A stretch of 40,450 nucleotides of DNA. It comes from a virus (lineage: Duplodnaviria > Heunggongvirae > Uroviricota > Caudoviricetes). Positions within the stretch are counted from its first letter, which is position 1; each line of letters opens with the position of its first letter. The notes below the pieces were generated by a model, which had not been told where the DNA came from, did not search any database, and was given only the letters and a program-made list of their open reading frames with translations. Of this stretch, positions 1 to 40,450 are shown piece by piece. The translations under genes were made by a program, and so were the position numbers. The stretch lies in IMG/VR virus record IMGVR_UViG_647533158_000004; one strand, 5' to 3'.

Positions 1-1053
1 TCATAAGAATGCTTTAATCAGTTCTTTTGTGCGCGTGGTTCGTTGTGGTAGCTTGGTTGTTGATGATAAACAACTTGTTACATAGGCTGCATAAGGGCCA
101 TCTTCGTCCTGAATTTCATGGGCATCAGCCATCTCTAAGAGAATCGGAATTACACGGGAAGGATTTACATCAAAGTTTGGGTTAGCCGTGAAACCGAGTT
201 CATTTTCAAGTTCATCACTTCCGGGGAAACCAAATTTTAATGCGGTAATAGCACAAAATAATGAGTGAACAACATACGATTTCATCATAAATGAATTACG
301 TAATTCGGAAAAATCTTCCGCCAATAAATTGAAGAAATAATCAATTCTCTCGTTATAGATATTCTCTAAAGGAAAATCATCATCGTATTTTTTATAAATA
401 GCTTCGGTTGCAGGTGCCGACTTTGAACAAAGCCCTCTATCAATGAGTATTGCCATATCTGAGATAAATTCTGCATCACCCATTCTGGCTAATATTTTGG
501 GTGACAATATATTATAAATCTCTAAAAGCTCAGCGTGGGTATCTGCTTTTTCAACGATATACCACTTAAATGCACCTTGAAAAGTAGCATGCCGTTTTTC
601 TGCTGATGTTAGTGGAGATGTATAAGCATTCATTCGTCTAAACATTTCGAGTAATTCAGCCCTGCTTGCTGAATAAACTGTGGATGTTTCAACTTGATAA
701 CTAATAAAACATCTTTTTGCATCATCGGGCAAATCATTAAAATACATGCCAGAATACTTCTTCGATGCCGAAGTAAGTGCAAATTTGTTTTTATAAAAAT
801 CAACGAGAGTTGTTACTCGTTGCTGGCCATCAACAATTTCTTTAATTGGCCTTTCGTTTGTCCTGTCAAATGCTTGATATAAATATATTTTGGGGAAAGG
901 ATAATTTTCTAGAATAGTGTCTATGAAATAACTCTTTGCAAATGGTGGCCATATTCCATTTCCGCGCTGATAATCCTTGTTAATTATTAGTTCTTTTCTC
1001 TCAAGCATTGAAATTAGATCAATTAATGTGATCTGCCCTACATTTGTATTCAT
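1..1053 (-). CDS. DUF262 (ParB/sulfiredoxin-like, DGQQR motif) protein; accessory gene downstream of int, candidate defence gene
   Basis: 350-aa ORF with N-terminal KDYQRG ... IVDGQQRVTTL motif typical of DUF262 as found in GmrSD/SspE-type proteins; no recognisable HNH/DUF1524 C-terminal domain. AGGAG 7 nt upstream of ATG; AT-rich relative to neighbours. Confidence 0.75.
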   Translation of the reverse strand: MNTNVGQITLIDLISMLERKELIINKDYQRGNGIWPPFAKSYFIDTILENYPFPKIYLYQAFDRTNERPIKEIVDGQQRVTTLVDFYKNKFALTSASKKYSGMYFNDLPDDAKRCFISYQVETSTVYSASRAELLEMFRRMNAYTSPLTSAEKRHATFQGAFKWYIVEKADTHAELLEIYNILSPKILARMGDAEFISDMAILIDRGLCSKSAPATEAIYKKYDDDFPLENIYNERIDYFFNLLAEDFSELRNSFMMKSYVVHSLFCAITALKFGFPGSDELENELGFTANPNFDVNPSRVIPILLEMADAHEIQDEDGPYAAYVTSCLSSTTKLPQRTTRTKELIKAFL

Positions 1054-1152: not shown

Positions 1153-2283
1153 TTAAAACTGGTGGATATACATCCAATCTTTTCCCCGATCATCATGATA
1201 ACGATCGGTTTGTTGTTGCGTTTTATGGCCAAGTAGTTTTTGTGTGTCTACCCCCTGTTCTTTGTACAGACGTTCAGATAAAGACCTTTGTTCATGGAAT
1301 GTTGCTGGTGAGCCATTACCCCAGTCAATTTCTGCCAAATCTCTCGCTCTACTAAAATTCGTCGTCAATGTATTGGATTTAACCTGCGCGCCACGTTCAG
1401 CCTGTGAAGTGGTACGAAAAAAATGCACAAGGTATGGGCTGACTGCATAGTCACGGCAGCGGGCGACTACATCGCGTAAACTCCAGTTAATCGCGTTGAG
1501 ACGAAGAGAAAGCGGGATGGCGATTTTGCTCCCGGTTTTTTCCTGGATGACATGGAGATGATCATCCCAAATATCGCTAAATTTCATACGCGAGATATCA
1601 CCTAACCTCTGGCCGGTAACCAGTGCTAACAGCATGGCATTCCCCATATAACGATGACTGGCATCTGCGATATCAAAGATTTTTTGCCATTCTTCAAGAC
1701 TTAACCGTTGTCGGGTAATTTTTCTTCTGGGTTGTTTGGTTGCCTGTGCTGGATTATAGCCCGGAGGGACTTCCCCATAGTGTTGTGCCTCCTTGAATAC
1801 ATCAATTAGAACGGAGCGGACTACTTGCGCCATCCTCGGTTGCCCGGCAGTGATATACTCGTCAAGCAATTGCGCTATATCCCTTACATCAACTGATGAA
1901 ATTAATTTCATTCCTGCTCGTTCCCTGAGCAAGGATACTGGTTTGGCTTTCTGTTTATAGGTGTTGAGCTTTATATCGCCACTTTCCAGTCTGTCATCCT
2001 GGATTGCTTGATAGCGATCTAACCAGGTTGACGTTGTGATTGCTTTTCCTTTGCTGGTTGCGATCCTGTCACTGATAGCCAGAATCTGCCGGGTTCTTTG
2101 CTCAGCCAGGCGTGAATTTGCCTCAGTGGCAATAGCAATGGCTTCAGCTTCGTTTGTGCCTAAAGAATGAAACTTCCCGGTCACTGGATGTTTATATCGC
2201 CAATAGACTTTATTTACTTTTCTACTATAAAGTGGATACAAGTTCGGGACTGAAACATTATTTTTACGTGGTCTGGCTGCCAT
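1153..2283 (-). CDS. int: Tyrosine integrase, lambda Int family
   Basis: 376 aa; N-terminal arm-binding-like region and C-terminal catalytic region (HEQRSLSERLY ... LLGHK ... RYHDDRG) closely resembling lambda Int. Confidence 0.95.
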   Translation of the reverse strand: MAARPRKNNVSVPNLYPLYSRKVNKVYWRYKHPVTGKFHSLGTNEAEAIAIATEANSRLAEQRTRQILAISDRIATSKGKAITTSTWLDRYQAIQDDRLESGDIKLNTYKQKAKPVSLLRERAGMKLISSVDVRDIAQLLDEYITAGQPRMAQVVRSVLIDVFKEAQHYGEVPPGYNPAQATKQPRRKITRQRLSLEEWQKIFDIADASHRYMGNAMLLALVTGQRLGDISRMKFSDIWDDHLHVIQEKTGSKIAIPLSLRLNAINWSLRDVVARCRDYAVSPYLVHFFRTTSQAERGAQVKSNTLTTNFSRARDLAEIDWGNGSPATFHEQRSLSERLYKEQGVDTQKLLGHKTQQQTDRYHDDRGKDWMYIHQF

Positions 2284-34816: not shown

Positions 34817-35599
34817 ATGCATCGTATAGACACGAAAACCGCGCAGAAGGATAAGTTCGGCGCGGGTAAGAACGGTTTTACCCGTGGTAACCCCCAGACC
34901 GGCACGCCTGCCACCGATCTGGATGATGACTACTTTGACATGTTGCAGGAGGAGCTTTGCAGCGTTGTGGAGGCATCCGGTGCCAGCCTGGAGAAGGGGC
35001 GGCATGACCAGCTGCTTACCGCGCTTCGTGCGCTGCTGTTAAGCCGCAAGAATCCGTTTGGCGATATCAAATCGGATGGCACGGTGAAAACAGCTCTCGA
35101 AAACCTTGGTTTGGGAGAAGGCTCAGCATTACCCGTTGGTGTGCCTGTTCCGTGGCCTTCAGCCACTCCGCCAACAGGCTGGCTGAAATGCAACGGAGCA
35201 GCTTTTTCTGCTGAAGAATACCCGGAACTGGCAAAGGCTTATCCGACAAATAAATTACCTGATTTACGCGGTGAGTTTATTCGTGGCTGGGATGACGGAC
35301 GTGGAGTGGATAACGGAAGGGGATTATTAACGCTTCAGGACGGTGCGATTGTCAGTCATAACCACTATTGGGGAATCTGGACTTCACGAACTAACGACCA
35401 GACTCTGGGAAGTTTTACAGGCACCACGATTTTAAAACAAATCACGCCCCTGTCTCCAGCCATTGACTTCGATAATTACCCAATTCCCAACCCGGCTATT
35501 ACAGAGGGTGGTGTTGTTGCGGCAACGACTAAACCTGCAGGTGCGAATGAAACACGCCCACGAAATGTCGCTTTTAACTATATTGTGAGGGCTGCATAA
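34817..35599 (+). CDS. Tail fibre protein: constant N-terminus fused to currently expressed variable C-terminus
   Basis: 260 aa; crossover site at 35100-35120 separates constant from variable part. Confidence 0.85.
35100..35120 (+). repeat. Left inverted repeat / recombination site of the invertible segment
   Basis: AAAACCTTGGTTTGGGAGAAG; its reverse complement occurs at 36951-36971 with one mismatch. Confidence 0.85.
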
Positions 35600-36201
35600 T
35601 GAATAACGCAGAATTAAACAGTGAATTAATTGCCACTATGGCAGGAGAAATTACTGTTTATAACTTTGACGTCATGAGTCGGGAGTATATTTCAGCTTCA
35701 ACTGAATATCTTGCTGTTGGTGTCGGCATTCCGGCATATTCCTGTTTAGATGCTCCAGGCACCTACAAAGCTGGTTATGCAATCTGCCGCTCTGCAGATT
35801 TTAACTCATGGGAATATGTACCAGACCATCGCGGTGAAATCGTCTATAACACCGAAACGGGAGACGCCAAAGAAATCACAACTCCGGGTGATTACCCCGA
35901 AAAAACAACCACTATCGCCCCGTTAACGCCATACGATAAATGGGATGGTGAGAAATGGGTGACGGATACTGAGACACAGCATAGCGCCGCAGTAGACGCG
36001 GCAGAAGCACAACGTCAGTCACTGATTGATACTGCAATGGCTTCCATTAGTCTGATTCAACTGAAATTGCAGGCCGGGCGGAAGCTGATGCAGGCAGAGA
36101 CCACCCGACTTAACACTGTGCTGGATTACATTGACGCGGTGACGGCAACAGATATCAGCACCGCGCCGGATGTCATCTGGCCTGTACTGCCGGAGGCGTA
36201 G
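35599..36201 (+). CDS. Tail fibre assembly protein (orientation currently coupled to expressed fibre)
   Basis: 200 aa, coupled to the tail fibre gene; C-terminal region resembles that of the oppositely oriented chaperone. Confidence 0.85.
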   Translation: MNNAELNSELIATMAGEITVYNFDVMSREYISASTEYLAVGVGIPAYSCLDAPGTYKAGYAICRSADFNSWEYVPDHRGEIVYNTETGDAKEITTPGDYPEKTTTIAPLTPYDKWDGEKWVTDTETQHSAAVDAAEAQRQSLIDTAMASISLIQLKLQAGRKLMQAETTRLNTVLDYIDAVTATDISTAPDVIWPVLPEA

Positions 36202-36604
36202 GCCATTCAATATCTGGCGCACTGGAAGTATCGACCATTTCCAGTGCGTCCAGGTAATCCAGCCACAAATTATATTGCGCCAGTTCCTCACCTTTCAGAC
36301 GACCAATCGCCGCTTTACCAGGCCATTGTTTGCTGTTCATGTATTCGTTGGCCTGATTAACTAATCGCTGTTTATTTGATTCAGCGATTGAGATTAATTC
36401 TTCGCTGGTAAGTGGTGGCGCATCCTGCCATGCTGGAAAACCATTTTTATCTGAACCAAGTATTTTACCATCAGGCCATGCAACTCCTGCGAACTCAGAA
36501 TAAATAGTAAAGTTTATTTTCGTAGCGTTCTCAGGAATGGTTTGGCTATCTGGTGAAATATAAAATCCCGAATCAGAGGGATTAAAATAATATGTCTTTT
36601 CCAT
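36173..36604 (-). CDS. Alternative tail fibre assembly protein (inverted orientation)
   Basis: 143 aa on minus strand within invertible segment; conserved C-terminal motif (WPTPP). Confidence 0.8.
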   Translation of the reverse strand: MEKTYYFNPSDSGFYISPDSQTIPENATKINFTIYSEFAGVAWPDGKILGSDKNGFPAWQDAPPLTSEELISIAESNKQRLVNQANEYMNSKQWPGKAAIGRLKGEELAQYNLWLDYLDALEMVDTSSAPDIEWPTPPAVQAR

Positions 36605-36606
36605 AG

Positions 36607-36950
36607 TTAATACCCCACAGCCATCCAGTAAATTGAATTTGTTGTAGCAGAAGTGTAAGTAAATCTGATTTTAGTTCTGTTGGTACTTCCAATATCAAAG
36701 CCCACAGAACGGGCAGAAGGATCATTAGTTGAAATAAGAGCGTTTACCGAACGACAAGCAGCAGGGAAAGCTACAGGTAATGTTATATCAACTGTTCCAA
36801 CACTTCCTCCGGTTGGTGAGACAGAAAAACTCCCCCATTGAATAATCATCCCCCCAGGTAATTTCTGGTATCCATTGGCGGTCAATGAGTTACCAAAGCT
36901 GTTCATATCCGGTACCTGATTTTCTCCTGTCCCCACATTCCTCTTTGCCG
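36607..36950 (-). CDS. Alternative tail fibre variable C-terminal segment (expressed only after inversion)
   Basis: Minus-strand frame begins at the right inverted repeat, encoding GLGE in the same frame as the constant fibre part; lacks its own N-terminus. Confidence 0.7.
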
Positions 36951-36971
36951 CTTCTCCCAAACCAACGTTTA
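36951..36971 (-). repeat. Right inverted repeat / recombination site
   Basis: CTTCTCCCAAACCAACGTTTT, reverse complement of the left site. Confidence 0.85.
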
Positions 36972-37031
36972 TGAAAATGCAGAAATAACGAGCAAATGGC
37001 ATCATTCCTGCTTTTGTCAGGGAGATCTACC

Positions 37032-37586
37032 ATGCTTATTGGCTATGTACGTGTGTCAACAAATGACCAGAACACAGATCTACAACGTAATGCGCTGAAC
37101 TGTGCAGGATGCGAGCTGATTTTTGAAGACAAGATAAGCGGTACAAAGTCCGAAAGGCCGGGACTGAAAAAACTGCTCAGGACATTATCGGCAGGTGATA
37201 CGCTGGTGGTCTGGAAACTGGACCGACTGGGGCGCAGTATGCGGCATCTTGTCGTGCTGGTGGAGGAGTTGCGCGAACGAGGCATCAACTTTCGTAGTCT
37301 GACGGATTCAATTGATACCAGTACCCCAATGGGGCGCTTTTTCTTTCATGTGATGGGTGCCCTGGCTGAAATGGAGCGTGAACTGATTGTTGAAAGAACA
37401 AAAGCTGGACTGGAAGCTGCTCGCGCACAGGGACGAATTGGTGGACGTCGTCCCAAACTTACACCAGAACAATGGGAACAGGCCGGACGATTAATTGCAT
37501 CAGGAGTTCCTCGCCAGAAGGTGGCGATTATCTATGATGTTGGTGTGTCAACTTTGTATAAGAGGTTTCCTGCAGGGGATAAATAA
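37032..37586 (+). CDS. pin: Serine DNA invertase (Pin/Gin/Hin family)
   Basis: GGGAG then ATG at 37032; 184 aa with catalytic serine context (MLIGYVRVSTNDQ) and C-terminal HTH. Confidence 0.9.
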   Translation: MLIGYVRVSTNDQNTDLQRNALNCAGCELIFEDKISGTKSERPGLKKLLRTLSAGDTLVVWKLDRLGRSMRHLVVLVEELRERGINFRSLTDSIDTSTPMGRFFFHVMGALAEMERELIVERTKAGLEAARAQGRIGGRRPKLTPEQWEQAGRLIASGVPRQKVAIIYDVGVSTLYKRFPAGDK

Positions 37587-37692
37587 AGTTAAAGACACTT
37601 TGTGTACAAAAGAAAGTAAAACAACAGCAACTTGTTGCAATTTTATCAATAAAAGTAGTATTGTCGTGAAAAATTGATTAAAGATTAATATT

Positions 37693-38526
37693 ATGCATGT
37701 TTTTGATAATAATGGAATTGAACTGAAAGCTGAGTGTTCGATAGGTGAAGAGGATGGTGTTTATGGTCTAATCCTTGAGTCGTGGGGGCCGGGTGACAGA
37801 AACAAAGATTACAATATCGCTCTTGATTATATCATTGAACGGTTGGTTGATTCTGGTGTATCCCAAGTCGTAGTATATCTGGCGTCATCATCAGTCAGAA
37901 AACATATGCATTCTTTGGATGAAAGAAAAATCCATCCTGGTGAATATTTTACTTTGATTGGTAATAGCCCCCGCGATATACGCTTGAAGATGTGTGGTTA
38001 TCAGGCTTATTTTAGTCGTACGGGGAGAAAGGAAATTCCTTCCGGCAATAGAACGAAACGAATATTGATAAATGTTCCAGGTATTTATAGTGACAGTTTT
38101 TGGGCGTCTATAATACGTGGAGAACTATCAGAGCTTTCACAGCCTACAGATGATGAATCGCTTCTGAATATGAGGGTTAGTAAATTAATTAAGAAAACGT
38201 TGAGTCAACCCGAGGGCTCTAGGAAACCAGTTGAGGTAGAAAGACTACAAAAAGTTTATGTCCGAGACCCGATGGTAAAAGCTTGGATTTTACAGCAAAG
38301 TAAAGGTATATGTGAAAACTGTGGTAAAAATGCTCCGTTTTATTTAAATGATGGAAACCCATATTTGGAAGTGCATCATGTAATTCCCCTGTCTTCAGGT
38401 GGTGCTGATACAACAGATAACTGTGTTGCCCTTTGTCCGAATTGCCATAGAGAATTGCACTATAGTAAAAATGCAAAAGAACTAATCGAGATGCTTTACG
38501 TTAATATAAACCGATTACAGAAATAA
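37693..38526 (+). CDS. mcrA: HNH-type restriction endonuclease McrA
   Basis: 277 aa; C-terminal HNH motif (CENCG ... HHVIPLSSGG ... CPNCH); length, pin-adjacent position and remembered sequence match e14 McrA. Confidence 0.85.
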   Translation: MHVFDNNGIELKAECSIGEEDGVYGLILESWGPGDRNKDYNIALDYIIERLVDSGVSQVVVYLASSSVRKHMHSLDERKIHPGEYFTLIGNSPRDIRLKMCGYQAYFSRTGRKEIPSGNRTKRILINVPGIYSDSFWASIIRGELSELSQPTDDESLLNMRVSKLIKKTLSQPEGSRKPVEVERLQKVYVRDPMVKAWILQQSKGICENCGKNAPFYLNDGNPYLEVHHVIPLSSGGADTTDNCVALCPNCHRELHYSKNAKELIEMLYVNINRLQK

Positions 38527-38759
38527 AATTATTTATTAAAGTCACATTTAAGACGTAATACCCTACAGGGTAAAATTTTTCTCTGATCTTAACTTCTGCA
38601 AATGTTAACTGCTATTTTTATGCTAAAAATGGTTATCAAAACTCAAAAACACATGTTTATAATCAATGAGTTATAGAAATGCTAAGGGCTAATGAGTTAT
38701 ATGCAAATTAGTAAAATTATGTTGCTATGTCAAATAGTTACGATTTAGTCATCTAACTA

Positions 38760-38924
38760 ATGTTACGCCATATGGGCTGGACTGAAGCCGCAGACCTGAT
38801 TGTTAAAGGTATGGAAGGCGCAATCAATGCGAAGACCGTAACCTATGACTTCGAGCGTCTGATGGAAGGCGCTAAACTGCTGAAATGTTCAGAATTTGGT
38901 GATGCGATCATCAAGAACATGTAA
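38760..38924 (+). pseudogene. icdC: Displaced 3' fragment of isocitrate dehydrogenase gene (icdC-like) marking the prophage right junction
   Basis: Encodes [51 protein letters not shown], the Icd C-terminus, with no upstream icd body. Confidence 0.8.
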
Positions 38925-38947
38925 TCACTACATGTGTTTAATATTGC

Positions 38948-38978
38948 AACGGGCGTATAACACGCCCGTTGTTTTATT
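38948..38978 (+). terminator. icd rho-independent terminator
   Basis: AACGGGCGT-ATAAC-ACGCCCGTT hairpin followed by a T-run. Confidence 0.75.
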
Positions 38979-39026
38979 TATGTAGGTATTATTAATAGCA
39001 TATCGAGCATATTTATATAAAACCCT

Positions 39027-39350
39027 TTACTTGAGCCCATATGGGCATATTTTTATAATGCAACTATTATGCAAACATTTATTTGTTATTTTGCTTTCTC
39101 CTGGAGGACACTCTTGACTGCTTTTGAGTAGACTCCATAAATCCTTGTTGAATGGTGCGATGTTATAAATAGTAATAGGATATTCTTTATCTTTAAGGAT
39201 AATTCCAGATTTAACCGGTGTAAATATACTGCCAGGAGGGAGAAATATAGTAGATTGATACCAGATGATCATTTTCATATTACCCCATATGGCTGAAAAA
39301 GATATGCCGCATGAAGGTTGAATTATCGTGTCAATTACTATCCACTTCAT
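39027..39350 (-). CDS. iraM: IraM-like anti-adaptor protein (host gene)
   Basis: 107 aa, AT-rich; position after icdC and remembered sequence are consistent with E. coli IraM. Confidence 0.65.
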
Positions 39351-39807
39351 TTGTTATGTCTTATCCCACGGTATTTAATATAGTTCATTTGGATGTTCAT
39401 TTCTTTATTTTGCATATGAGTATATTACCCCTTCAAAAAATAAATTAATTAAAACGATTGCTTATATAAAACAAAATTTAAAGCAAGGAATCTCAATGGA
39501 TGTTAAACAAAATGAGATTTAGTGAAAACAATAAATTATTCACTTCGTTTTAGATTTGTTTAGCTATAATGTTATACATTCAAATGACTGAACATCCTGT
39601 AATTAAAACATAGCCTTTATGCTACTTTGTGCCAATTTGCTAAACATTATGGTTGCCTTTTTATATAACGATAATAATGAATATAAGCATGACATGAGAA
39701 TAAGGTTTCAATTTTTGAGTTATATAGGAAAGGTTTAACCTGTTCCTGGCTAAAATACATATAACTGGATGATGACTAAACCAAAACACATGTGCGTTAA
39801 GTATTGA

Positions 39808-39837
39808 AACGGGCGTATGGCACACCCGTTGTTTTTA
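39808..39837 (+). repeat. Diverged second copy of the icd downstream terminator region
   Basis: 39781-39837 aligns with 38928-38975 at ~75% identity (ACATGTG ... AACGGGCGTAT ... CCCGTTGTTTT). Confidence 0.55.
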
Positions 39838-40045
39838 TAAATATATTAACCGTTATAAAATAACGTATAGAAAGTCAAGTGATCACATTTCAAATATCAA
39901 TTTGATAGTATTGGCATGGTGATTATTTATGGGTAGCAATAAAAGGACAGTATTTATCATCCATAGGGATAGTCTCTGTACTTTTATTCCCATTATGCTA
40001 ATGCCTTACTGAATTATGAAGCATTTCTTAAGCATCCAACTTTAG

Positions 40046-40450
40046 CTAGATTAATGGTTTATTATTTTCTACATCTTCAATATATAAAAGCGTATTATCA
40101 ATGGCGTAGTAACTGCGTTTGTTATGATTAACATCAGTAACCCACCGGAAAACGCCCGCGCCTGCTAGTGTTGAACAGTATTCCCGAAATGTAGATTTTC
40201 CGCAAATATGAAGCAATGCGGCCTCTTTTATTTTAGCAGGGTTCTTGGTCGTACTAACTTTTAACAGGTTCCTGGTTCCTCTTAATAACAAAACCGTGTC
40301 ATCGTGAGTAATAATTCTGATGTTATCCGTAGCCAGATAATAAATGTAATGTGCAATACGGTGATGTTTTAATTCTGAATAAAACCAGGAGAAGTTTTGC
40401 TCTTTTCTCACTTGCTCAAACATCTTTTGAAAAACAACGACCTGATCCAT
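40046..40450 (-). CDS. ycgX: YcgX-like DUF1398 protein (host gene)
   Basis: 134-aa ORF starting at the window edge; length and position after iraM match E. coli ycgX (from memory). Confidence 0.6.
   Translation of the reverse strand: MDQVVVFQKMFEQVRKEQNFSWFYSELKHHRIAHYIYYLATDNIRIITHDDTVLLLRGTRNLLKVSTTKNPAKIKEAALLHICGKSTFREYCSTLAGAGVFRWVTDVNHNKRSYYAIDNTLLYIEDVENNKPLI

Follow-up and report, generated by a model that had tools for sequence, protein, structure and literature searches.

The question raised by this locus is how iraM, which encodes an anti-adaptor that protects RpoS from RssB/ClpXP, came to stand directly beside the icd attachment site of an e14-family prophage. We studied a 40,450-nucleotide stretch of DNA, referred to here as the window, from a virus of the Caudoviricetes (IMG/VR record IMGVR_UViG_647533158_000004). 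The window is almost wholly occupied by one e14-family prophage, and beyond its right junction with icd, iraM is enclosed by two copies of the icd terminator, C1 and C2. The comparison of prophage-free, single-terminator and longer forms of this locus indicates that iraM probably lies in the remains of an earlier element that had integrated at icd, and the 3' end of this gene was likely the target of two or more separate integrations. The anti-adaptor function of IraM is known from the work on K-12, and in E. coli iraM is PhoP-controlled and regulates the stability of RpoS. The tyrosine integrase of the e14-family phages recombines within the last 165 bp of icd. Each of these phages brings a replacement icd 3' end, terminator and arm, and the resident icd end and terminator are pushed to the far (right) end of the prophage.

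The icd junction and the two terminator copies

The right junction of the present prophage was located by its identity to an unoccupied locus. From 38760 rightwards the window was 100% identical to the icd locus of RM8385, and no homology was found to the left of that position. The first phage-type single-nucleotide polymorphism (SNP) in the attL of RM7190 corresponds to window position 38777, which bounds the crossover to 38760-38776, while the less closely related attL of RM10466 gave 38760-38821. In RM7190 these SNPs begin after 17 nt of homology and in RM10466 after 62 nt; icd is annotated there as full length, and the attL of both carries a diverged, phage-supplied icd 3' end that leaves icd intact. 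Beyond its stop codon, the phage copy of icd is followed by a diverged terminator of its own, AACGGGAGTGT(A/T)ACGCTCCCG(C/T)TGTTTT in the two prophages, and then by an arm with GCTAACGGTTATCAAAATTTTATCAAAA. The integrase and excisionase genes are at the icd-proximal end, as window positions 1153-2283 on the minus strand and the downstream xis were 100% identical to the intE/xisE DNA that lies beside icd in RM7190. The displaced icd end is an open reading frame (ORF) on the plus strand of 54 aa (MLRHMGW...AIIKNM), and RefSeq labels the identical sequence a partial isocitrate dehydrogenase pseudogene. As such, the junction is textbook and agrees with the known e14, whose icd/icdC arrangement has been described and whose excision competence has been reported for K-12 (PMC13626634).

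An initial annotation of this DNA, made from the letters alone, had proposed a prophage right junction in icd, an icd 3' fragment at 38760-38924 with its terminator, a second and about 75% identical terminator copy roughly 850 bp further right, beyond iraM, and a position of iraM inside a decayed earlier element. The junction is borne out by intE/xisE on the left, pinE/mcrA on the right and the identity to RM8385, while the fragment was found at the proposed place by its ORF, its RefSeq label and the same identity. The three-way comparison of attachment sites supplied the identity breakpoints that bound the core, which the annotation had left to be located. The second terminator copy is also real, with an offset of 860 bp from C1 to C2, start to start; only the figure for its identity was somewhat low, as we obtained 84% ungapped over 43 nt and 85% over 48 nt in a gapped alignment (BLAST, E 1.9e-7). 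The similarity takes in about 20 nt upstream of the hairpin, and therefore C1 and C2 are not merely two GC hairpins. Moreover, a terminator pattern with 25 specified bases had exactly two sites in the window, C1 and C2, where none were expected from 100 shuffles.

The two copies differ in their state of preservation. C1 folds as a rho-independent terminator, with an 11-bp stem and a U-run (-26.2 kcal/mol, z -6.9), whereas C2 did not qualify as a terminator hairpin on the plus strand of the window (-11.4 kcal/mol, z 0.08) and was marginal on the minus strand (-16 kcal/mol, z -2.4). The C1 stem-loop was unchanged in every lineage examined, whereas C2 was degenerate in differing ways: in the window lineage a G in the 3' arm is replaced by A, in K-12 a single stem pair bears two changes, and in 19KM1831 the stem is intact and the loop altered. 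The G-to-A change (in 39808-39835) breaks the hairpin on the plus strand and keeps a G-U pair in the minus-strand RNA; C2 of the window lineage might, judged from its sequence, still slow read-through from ycgX-ymgL into iraM. In K-12 C2, for which the fold was computed for the plus strand only, the sequence gives a mismatch at the same stem pair on either strand. As far as sequence conservation can tell, the contrast between C1 and C2 is the pattern of one selected copy and one relic. C1 is predicted to be bidirectional and probably also ends the iraM transcripts. An Rfam scan of 38400-40200 yielded only two matches, both sub-threshold, to tpke11 and SNORD72. The match to the tpke11 small RNA family covers the icd terminator (38929-38999) with 26 bits against a gathering score of 43 and is most likely a matter of hairpin similarity alone.

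The duplication does not depend on the prophage that is present today. RM8385, which has no prophage at icd, carries exactly the same C1-iraM-C2-ymgL-ycgX sequence, and because prophage-free loci have this arrangement, the duplication is independent of the present prophage. The alignment with an uninterrupted icd locus, which had been proposed as a check, thus shows both terminators around iraM, and an uninterrupted locus with iraM and a single terminator, which would have spoken against the duplication, was not what the prophage-free iraM loci revealed. The iraM region was found in 3,939 of 5,426 complete E. coli genomes. In about 1,037 of the same 5,426, including Nissle 1917, a single-terminator junction was present that consists of icd, the terminator, ymgL and ycgX without iraM, and CFT073 has been reported to be without iraM (PMC4045071). 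The single terminator corresponds to an ancestral form of C1 through the T-run, followed by the right flank of C2. The claim that a duplicated terminator flanks iraM therefore stands, and the duplicated sequence is specific for icd. The duplication is old, fixed in all of the iraM-bearing lineages examined and unrelated to the present prophage. Consequently, iraM is outside attR and independent of e14, and it belongs to an older scar.

The diversity of the cassette between the terminators (3.6-6.6%) was similar to that of the flank (5.7-9.6%), which places the age of the cassette close to that of the E. coli radiation. The single-terminator, B2-type state may reflect either the loss of the old element by recombination between the repeats or a lineage that never received it, and is also compatible with early excision. 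For a deletion between C1 and C2 to give the single terminator, the crossover would have to fall within the last 15 identical nt, which is possible. Neither dating by divergence nor the single-crossover test for a loss in B2 discriminated between gain and loss.

One clue of the initial annotation did not hold. The 11-mer AAAACACATGT, given at 38646 and 39784, does occur twice, at 38646-38656 in the prophage right arm and, one position off, at 39783-39793. Such a repeat is at chance level, as one or more repeated 11-mers arose in 68% of the dinucleotide shuffles of 38400-40100; the copy at 39783 is part of the cassette and not of icd, and K-12 has AAAATACATGT at the C2-side position, so that the repeat is not exact there. 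As it is at chance level and not conserved, AAAACACATGT was rejected as an att-related repeat.

The long allele and the history of the iraM interval

The evidence for an earlier element comes mainly from a rare long allele. It was found through YcgX homologues of 89-90% identity (locus L042) and is also present in the complete genome R32_14_1F and 18 others, i.e., in 19 genomes. Roughly 430 E. coli genomes show neither this long form nor the short cassette nor the single terminator. The order of its left half is rluE, icd, a first terminator copy (T1), an e14-type P' arm, a gene for a 455-aa protein (hyp455), an IS5 fragment and an Rz fragment with trkG, which is about 90% identical to the trkG of the Rac prophage. 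It is followed by a different hairpin, iraM, a ymgB-like gene, a relic icd 3' end with a second terminator copy (T2), the same right flank as in the other forms, ycgX and bluR. The iraM of this allele aligns with 79% nucleotide identity and scores 145 bits for NF007393. T1 is followed by GCTAACGGTTATCAAAATTTTATCAAAA, which is 88-93% identical to the arms of other e14-type prophages. In the relic, an exact ATCAAGAATATGT, the codons for IKNM and the first base of the stop, is placed 24 nt before the hairpin, where the native spacing is 25 nt, and the 40 nt of icd that come before have left collinear traces (...GCTGAAATGTTCAGAGTTTGGTG...), detected by gapped local alignment (p = 0.012). Additionally, BLAST aligned the single-terminator locus with L042 in one unbroken stretch that starts with the final 15 nt of icd, passes T2 and reaches bluR, with 90.7% identity. 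Considering the arm and the relic together, iraM in the long allele therefore has an attL-like end on one side and a relic attR on the other. The proposal that iraM lies within a decayed earlier element thus finds its support in the P' arm, the relic ATCAAGAATATGT at its native spacing and T2. The 455-aa protein of the island gave nothing significant in Pfam or PADLOC. YcgX homologues of 70-77% identity were also followed as a path to outgroup loci and were rejected, since they are paralogues, in a lambdoid prophage or at yedE/yedF; only those of 89-90% identity were of use.

The common E. coli form can be read as a shortened version of the long one. Window segments 38989-39355, 39379-39740 and 39797-40450 are collinear with the long form. 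At the left join, the T-run of C1 replaces the block from the P' arm to trkG and its hairpin, and the homology resumes at about 38982 (GTAG...) by eye or at 38989 by BLAST; the ymgB-like gene is missing from the common form. The window DNA at 39702-39792 (...CAAAACACAT, ending at 39792) aligns to L042 about 190 nt upstream of the relic, and therefore about 215 bp that include the icd remnant were deleted in E. coli. From these alignments, the common form would be the long form after three deletions, which took away a left block of about 4.8 kb, the ymgB-like gene and the approximately 215 bp with the icd relic.

The history that we propose has two layers. The upper one is the present prophage, with its junction at 38760, the displaced icd end at 38760-38924 and terminator C1. 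In the lower one, a similar element would have integrated in the same way at an earlier time with iraM near its right end, and would then have decayed by deletion. The rare allele would keep its left arm, hyp455, trkG, iraM, the ymgB-like gene and the decayed icd end with its terminator, and the common form would be left with 0.8 kb, iraM between C1 and the relic terminator C2. C1 would be under selection as the working icd terminator, C2 would be degenerating without a conserved role, and iraM would have been retained for its usefulness as an RpoS-stabilising anti-adaptor.

As a tentative and rather doubtful extension, the integration scars downstream of icd may form a stack that can be read layer by layer; iraM would be domesticated cargo of the second layer, and the right flank of C2 could mark a third, older one with which ycgX would have arrived, perhaps along with the neighbouring genes for stress and biofilm, bluR/bluF/ymgAB. 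This flank (39836-39875, TATAAATATATTAACCGTTATAAAATAACG) agrees with the e14-type left arm GCTAACGGTTATCAAAAT at 19-20 of 40 positions in register and at the same distance from the terminator (empirical p mostly <0.04). The likeness could reflect an older third layer or a phage arm that was once captured from the host. The right flank of C1 in the window showed no significant similarity to an e14-type arm.

Other origins of the duplicated terminator have to be weighed against this history. That C2 is an unrelated terminator or a dispersed element like the repetitive extragenic palindromic (REP) sequences, similar to C1 by chance or convergence, is barely credible. GC-rich hairpins with T-runs are common and C1 has its sub-threshold tpke11 match, but none of 100 shuffles matched the pattern, the similarity reaches 20 nt upstream of the hairpin, and the flank of C2 is the native flank of the single terminator. 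Moreover, we scanned one genome per species for 185,579 species with a degenerate 21-base pattern that covers C1, C2 and the phage version, and it occurred only after icd: 13 matching stretches were found, from Escherichia, Shigella, Citrobacter, Yokenella and two contaminated metagenome-assembled genomes (MAGs), and all 13 directly followed an icd 3' end. REP elements and bacterial interspersed mosaic elements are recognised by many copies at unrelated intergenic sites; here, two copies in the window and 13 stretches across species were found. The possibility of a widespread REP-like terminator, which had been raised with the initial annotation, is thus excluded. An arrival of iraM by a non-phage route seems quite unlikely, whether as a fragment inserted at the icd terminator through homologous or microhomology-mediated recombination, or by a local terminator duplication followed by insertion. 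In its favour, the repeat in the common form spans only about 48 nt of intergenic DNA and hairpin with no icd coding sequence beside C2, and the structure of the single terminator, which is C1 to the T-run and then the flank of C2, fits a simple insertion at the T-run. However, in the relic of the long form the final codons of icd are preserved at their native distance from the hairpin, together with the collinear traces, as displacement predicts and unlike a duplication of the terminator alone; the long form also opens with an e14-type arm, and the absence of the relic in E. coli is accounted for by the mapped deletion of about 215 bp.

It is also unlikely that C2 and T2 derive from an old icd integration into which iraM came later, e.g., with a lambdoid phage, between the repeats, or that the left part of the long form is a separate, more recent element. 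The closest relatives of IraM occupy the Q-to-lysis cargo region of lambdoid phages and are not by attachment sites, and the trkG with the Rz fragment is a Rac-like lambdoid piece, so the island of the long form is mosaic; no DNA homology to lambdoid phages was found outside the iraM coding sequence. Against a later arrival, the long form has two terminator copies only, with iraM between them and no third scar, and an extra independent insertion would be needed in the same 1-5 kb interval.

Several observations weigh against an earlier icd-integrated element as the source of iraM. Within the window alone the case for it would be weak; the DNA left of C2 aligned locally to icd no better than shuffles did (p = 0.78). 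The identity between the long and short forms around iraM is only 72-80%, so their relationship is old and the order of events has to be inferred. No integrase-like ORF or domain or other recombination gene was found in the short or the long interval, and because none survives, the type of the earlier element is read from the arm sequence and the relic alone. In the sequenced phages of our collection there was no close iraM orthologue, the best being 65% identical. For the outgroups E. albertii and Escherichia sp. MOD1-EC7003 only attL-side sequence was reached, which leaves the native downstream state unread, and E. fergusonii had no match to the terminator pattern. The long form itself might be secondary, if a later e14-type element was truncated up to iraM, in which case T1 and the arm would be foreign to the element of iraM. 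Separately, ACCAAAACACATGT was considered as a decayed ATCAAGAACATGT and rejected, as this stretch is orthologous to cassette DNA in L042.

Relatives of iraM and other features of the site

By its sequence, the window protein belongs to the IraM family (Table 1). The more distant relatives that could be placed (57-74% identity) were opposite-strand cargo genes of lambdoid phages, between Q or stx2AB and nanS-p, and other relatives were on plasmids. The place of these relatives among phage cargo, together with the reported restriction of iraM to Escherichia and Shigella (PMC4045071), lends support to an origin of iraM in a mobile element. Stx2 phages and other lambdoid phages carry these genes on the opposite strand right after stx2AB or Q (L006:5001-5324; L007:5001-5324; L021-L026), and from the gene order a Shiga-toxin phage may also deliver an RpoS anti-adaptor. 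Comparison of the cassette flanks with those of the Stx-phage iraM paralogues gave no DNA homology outside the coding sequence. The nearest relatives of ycgX outside E. coli (70-77%) were between Rz and Nu1 of a lambdoid prophage in E. albertii (L031:6001-6405) and in Escherichia sp. beside yedE/yedF (L027:6001-6405), and ycgX also looks like former phage cargo.

Table 1. Positions of the features in the window, with the evidence on which each is based.
Feature	Positions	Strand	Basis
DUF262 protein gene, prophage cargo between attL and integrase	1..1053	-	ORF; DUF262 annotation downstream of icd in identical RM7190 DNA
intE, tyrosine integrase of e14-family prophage; xisE next	1153..2283	-	RefSeq annotation of identical RM7190 DNA; 91.6% nt identity to RM10466 intE region
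pinE, DNA invertase, adjoins invertible tail-fibre segment	36996..37586	+	ORF; pinE annotation in identical RM10466 DNA
mcrA, HNH restriction endonuclease, final prophage gene	37693..38526	+	ORF; annotated mcrA; tblastn 100% to K-12-like e14 copy in L018
Prophage right arm (P arm)	38527..38759	+	Without homology to unoccupied locus; identity to attB starts at 38760
Crossover (core) interval of present prophage, ATGTTACGCCATATGGG	38760..38776	+	Three-way alignment of attB (RM8385), attL (RM7190) and attR (window)
Displaced host icd 3' end (icdC pseudogene), 54 codons + stop	38760..38924	+	ORF; RefSeq; identity to unoccupied locus
C1, functional icd intrinsic terminator (predicted), stem 38946-38972	38933..38975	+	Hairpin + U-run; stem-loop invariant in lineages examined
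iraM cassette, probable remnant of earlier icd-integrated element	38976..39792	.	Missing exactly between terminators in GN02050 and N41; collinear with R32_14_1F and L042 island
iraM, anti-adaptor	39027..39350	-	97% identity to K-12 IraM; NCBIfam NF007393 172 bits vs cut-off 121
ymgK, small annotated ORF in iraM upstream region	39603..39647	-	RefSeq annotation of identical DNA, coordinates mapped
C2, relic copy of icd terminator	39793..39835	+	Homology to C1; lineage-specific decay; weak hairpin
Native right flank of terminator, common to single-terminator loci	39836..39875	+	Weak in-register likeness to e14-type P' arm
ymgL, small ORF	39883..39993	-	Pfam YmgL, E 1.2e-22
ycgX (DUF1398), first gene right of scar	40046..40450	-	ORF; annotation

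The species scan also revealed what else occupies the icd site. The Citrobacter and Yokenella matches were e14-type attL sites. In E. albertii (L017:3866-4492), a different element is present at icd, with the arm ATGATGATGTAAAATCTTCCCCAAAAC and an integrase that directly adjoins the terminator, and the same non-e14 arm sequence was found in Escherichia sp. MOD1-EC7003 and in a contaminated MAG, in the little DNA that was available. The icd site is thus targeted by more than one phage family. The MAGs labelled Sutterella and Veillonella (L014; L015) contain contigs with E. coli-type icd ends, which are likely bin contamination.

The present prophage is about 39 kb long from intE to mcrA. From left to right it carries the DUF262 cargo, intE, xisE, regulatory genes, head genes, Mu-like tail genes, a Pin-invertible tail-fibre segment, pinE and mcrA, and its attL is outside the window, about 0.8-1 kb beyond the left end. 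For the leftmost 2.6 kb of the window, 100% identity was found to nine genomes, among them E. coli O91 RM7190, and in these the DNA is about 0.8 kb downstream of icd. The rightmost 3.5 kb (36951-40450) were 100% identical to RM10466, while the left end was only 91.6% identical to that genome. The tail-fibre segment at 35101-36970, by pinE, was inverted compared to RM10466, with 99.5% identity on the opposite strand, which is consistent with active or recent Pin-mediated switching. The cargo between attL and intE varies among related prophages: the window has the DUF262 protein (1-1053), RM10466 has a 775-aa tetratricopeptide repeat protein (L004:2707-5034) with a PADLOC candidate-defence match, PDC-M34B (E 6e-10), and K-12 has lit. 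This slot looks like a defence-gene hotspot.

Repeats were also observed in the prophage arms. In the right arm, AATGAGTTATA occurs twice as a direct repeat, at 38665 and 38691, 26 bp apart (38665-38701), and in the left arm TTATCAAAA occurs three times (L004:2355-2400); both are candidate integrase arm-binding sites by their sequence pattern. Inside iraM, on the plus strand at 39277-39295, ATATTACCCCATATGGCTG agrees in 17 of 20 positions with ATGTTACGCCATATGGGCTG, the crossover sequence of the prophage (local p ~0.03). This match is probably due to chance, aided by the Ile-Trp codons, and a secondary attachment-like site is possible. The motif ACATGT-N7-ACATGT after the icd stop was considered as a recombinase core and rejected upon sequence inspection because its spacers at C1 and C2 differ.

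Relation to known systems and significance

The window prophage corresponds to the e14 of K-12 in its gene set of intE, xisE, pinE and mcrA, in the same 165-bp host icd fragment and in the phage-supplied replacement icd end, and the K-12 locus aligns at about 96% across mcrA-icdC-iraM-ycgX. It differs in that it is full-length, about 39 kb with Mu-like tail genes compared to the 15-kb remnant in K-12, and has the DUF262 cargo where K-12 has ymfD, ymfE and lit. The iraM interval resembles 'grounded' prophages, the remnants and nested or tandem integrations found where elements share one hotspot, in that an attL-like arm and a relic attR surround a few cargo genes after the loss of the recombination and structural genes. 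Unlike in those remnants, however, the icd attachment site is inside a housekeeping gene, and every layer leaves behind another 3' end of the gene with its terminator, so that the order of events is readable; moreover, the retained iraM is now part of the host stress-response network. A further parallel is offered by the anti-adaptors IraM, IraL and RssC as horizontal genes, with IraL on the potB island of CFT073: iraM and iraL have been reported only from Escherichia and Shigella, and iraM is missing in some lineages and has phage-borne relatives (PMC4045071). The same paper places iraM 'on the e14 prophage' (PMC4045071), whereas here it is outside attR and also in prophage-free loci. The literature that we searched contained no paper with both icdC and iraM, and the older scar around iraM appears to be undescribed there, although it is a case of ordinary prophage decay. 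The process is familiar, and no new mechanism is revealed.

The findings correct the location of iraM: the gene is not in e14, and the older scar that holds it is fixed in most lineages of E. coli and missing from Nissle- and CFT073-type genomes. On a practical level, assembly, SNP calling at icd, which is a multilocus sequence typing (MLST) locus, and the prediction of prophage boundaries can be misled by the direct repeats that the two terminator copies and the icdC fragment form. A concrete origin can also be offered for iraM, as this RpoS anti-adaptor apparently began as the cargo of a mobile element that was kept by the host. The genomes with no cassette, a short one or a long one are a natural comparison for the way in which a regulator, once acquired, becomes connected to the stress response.

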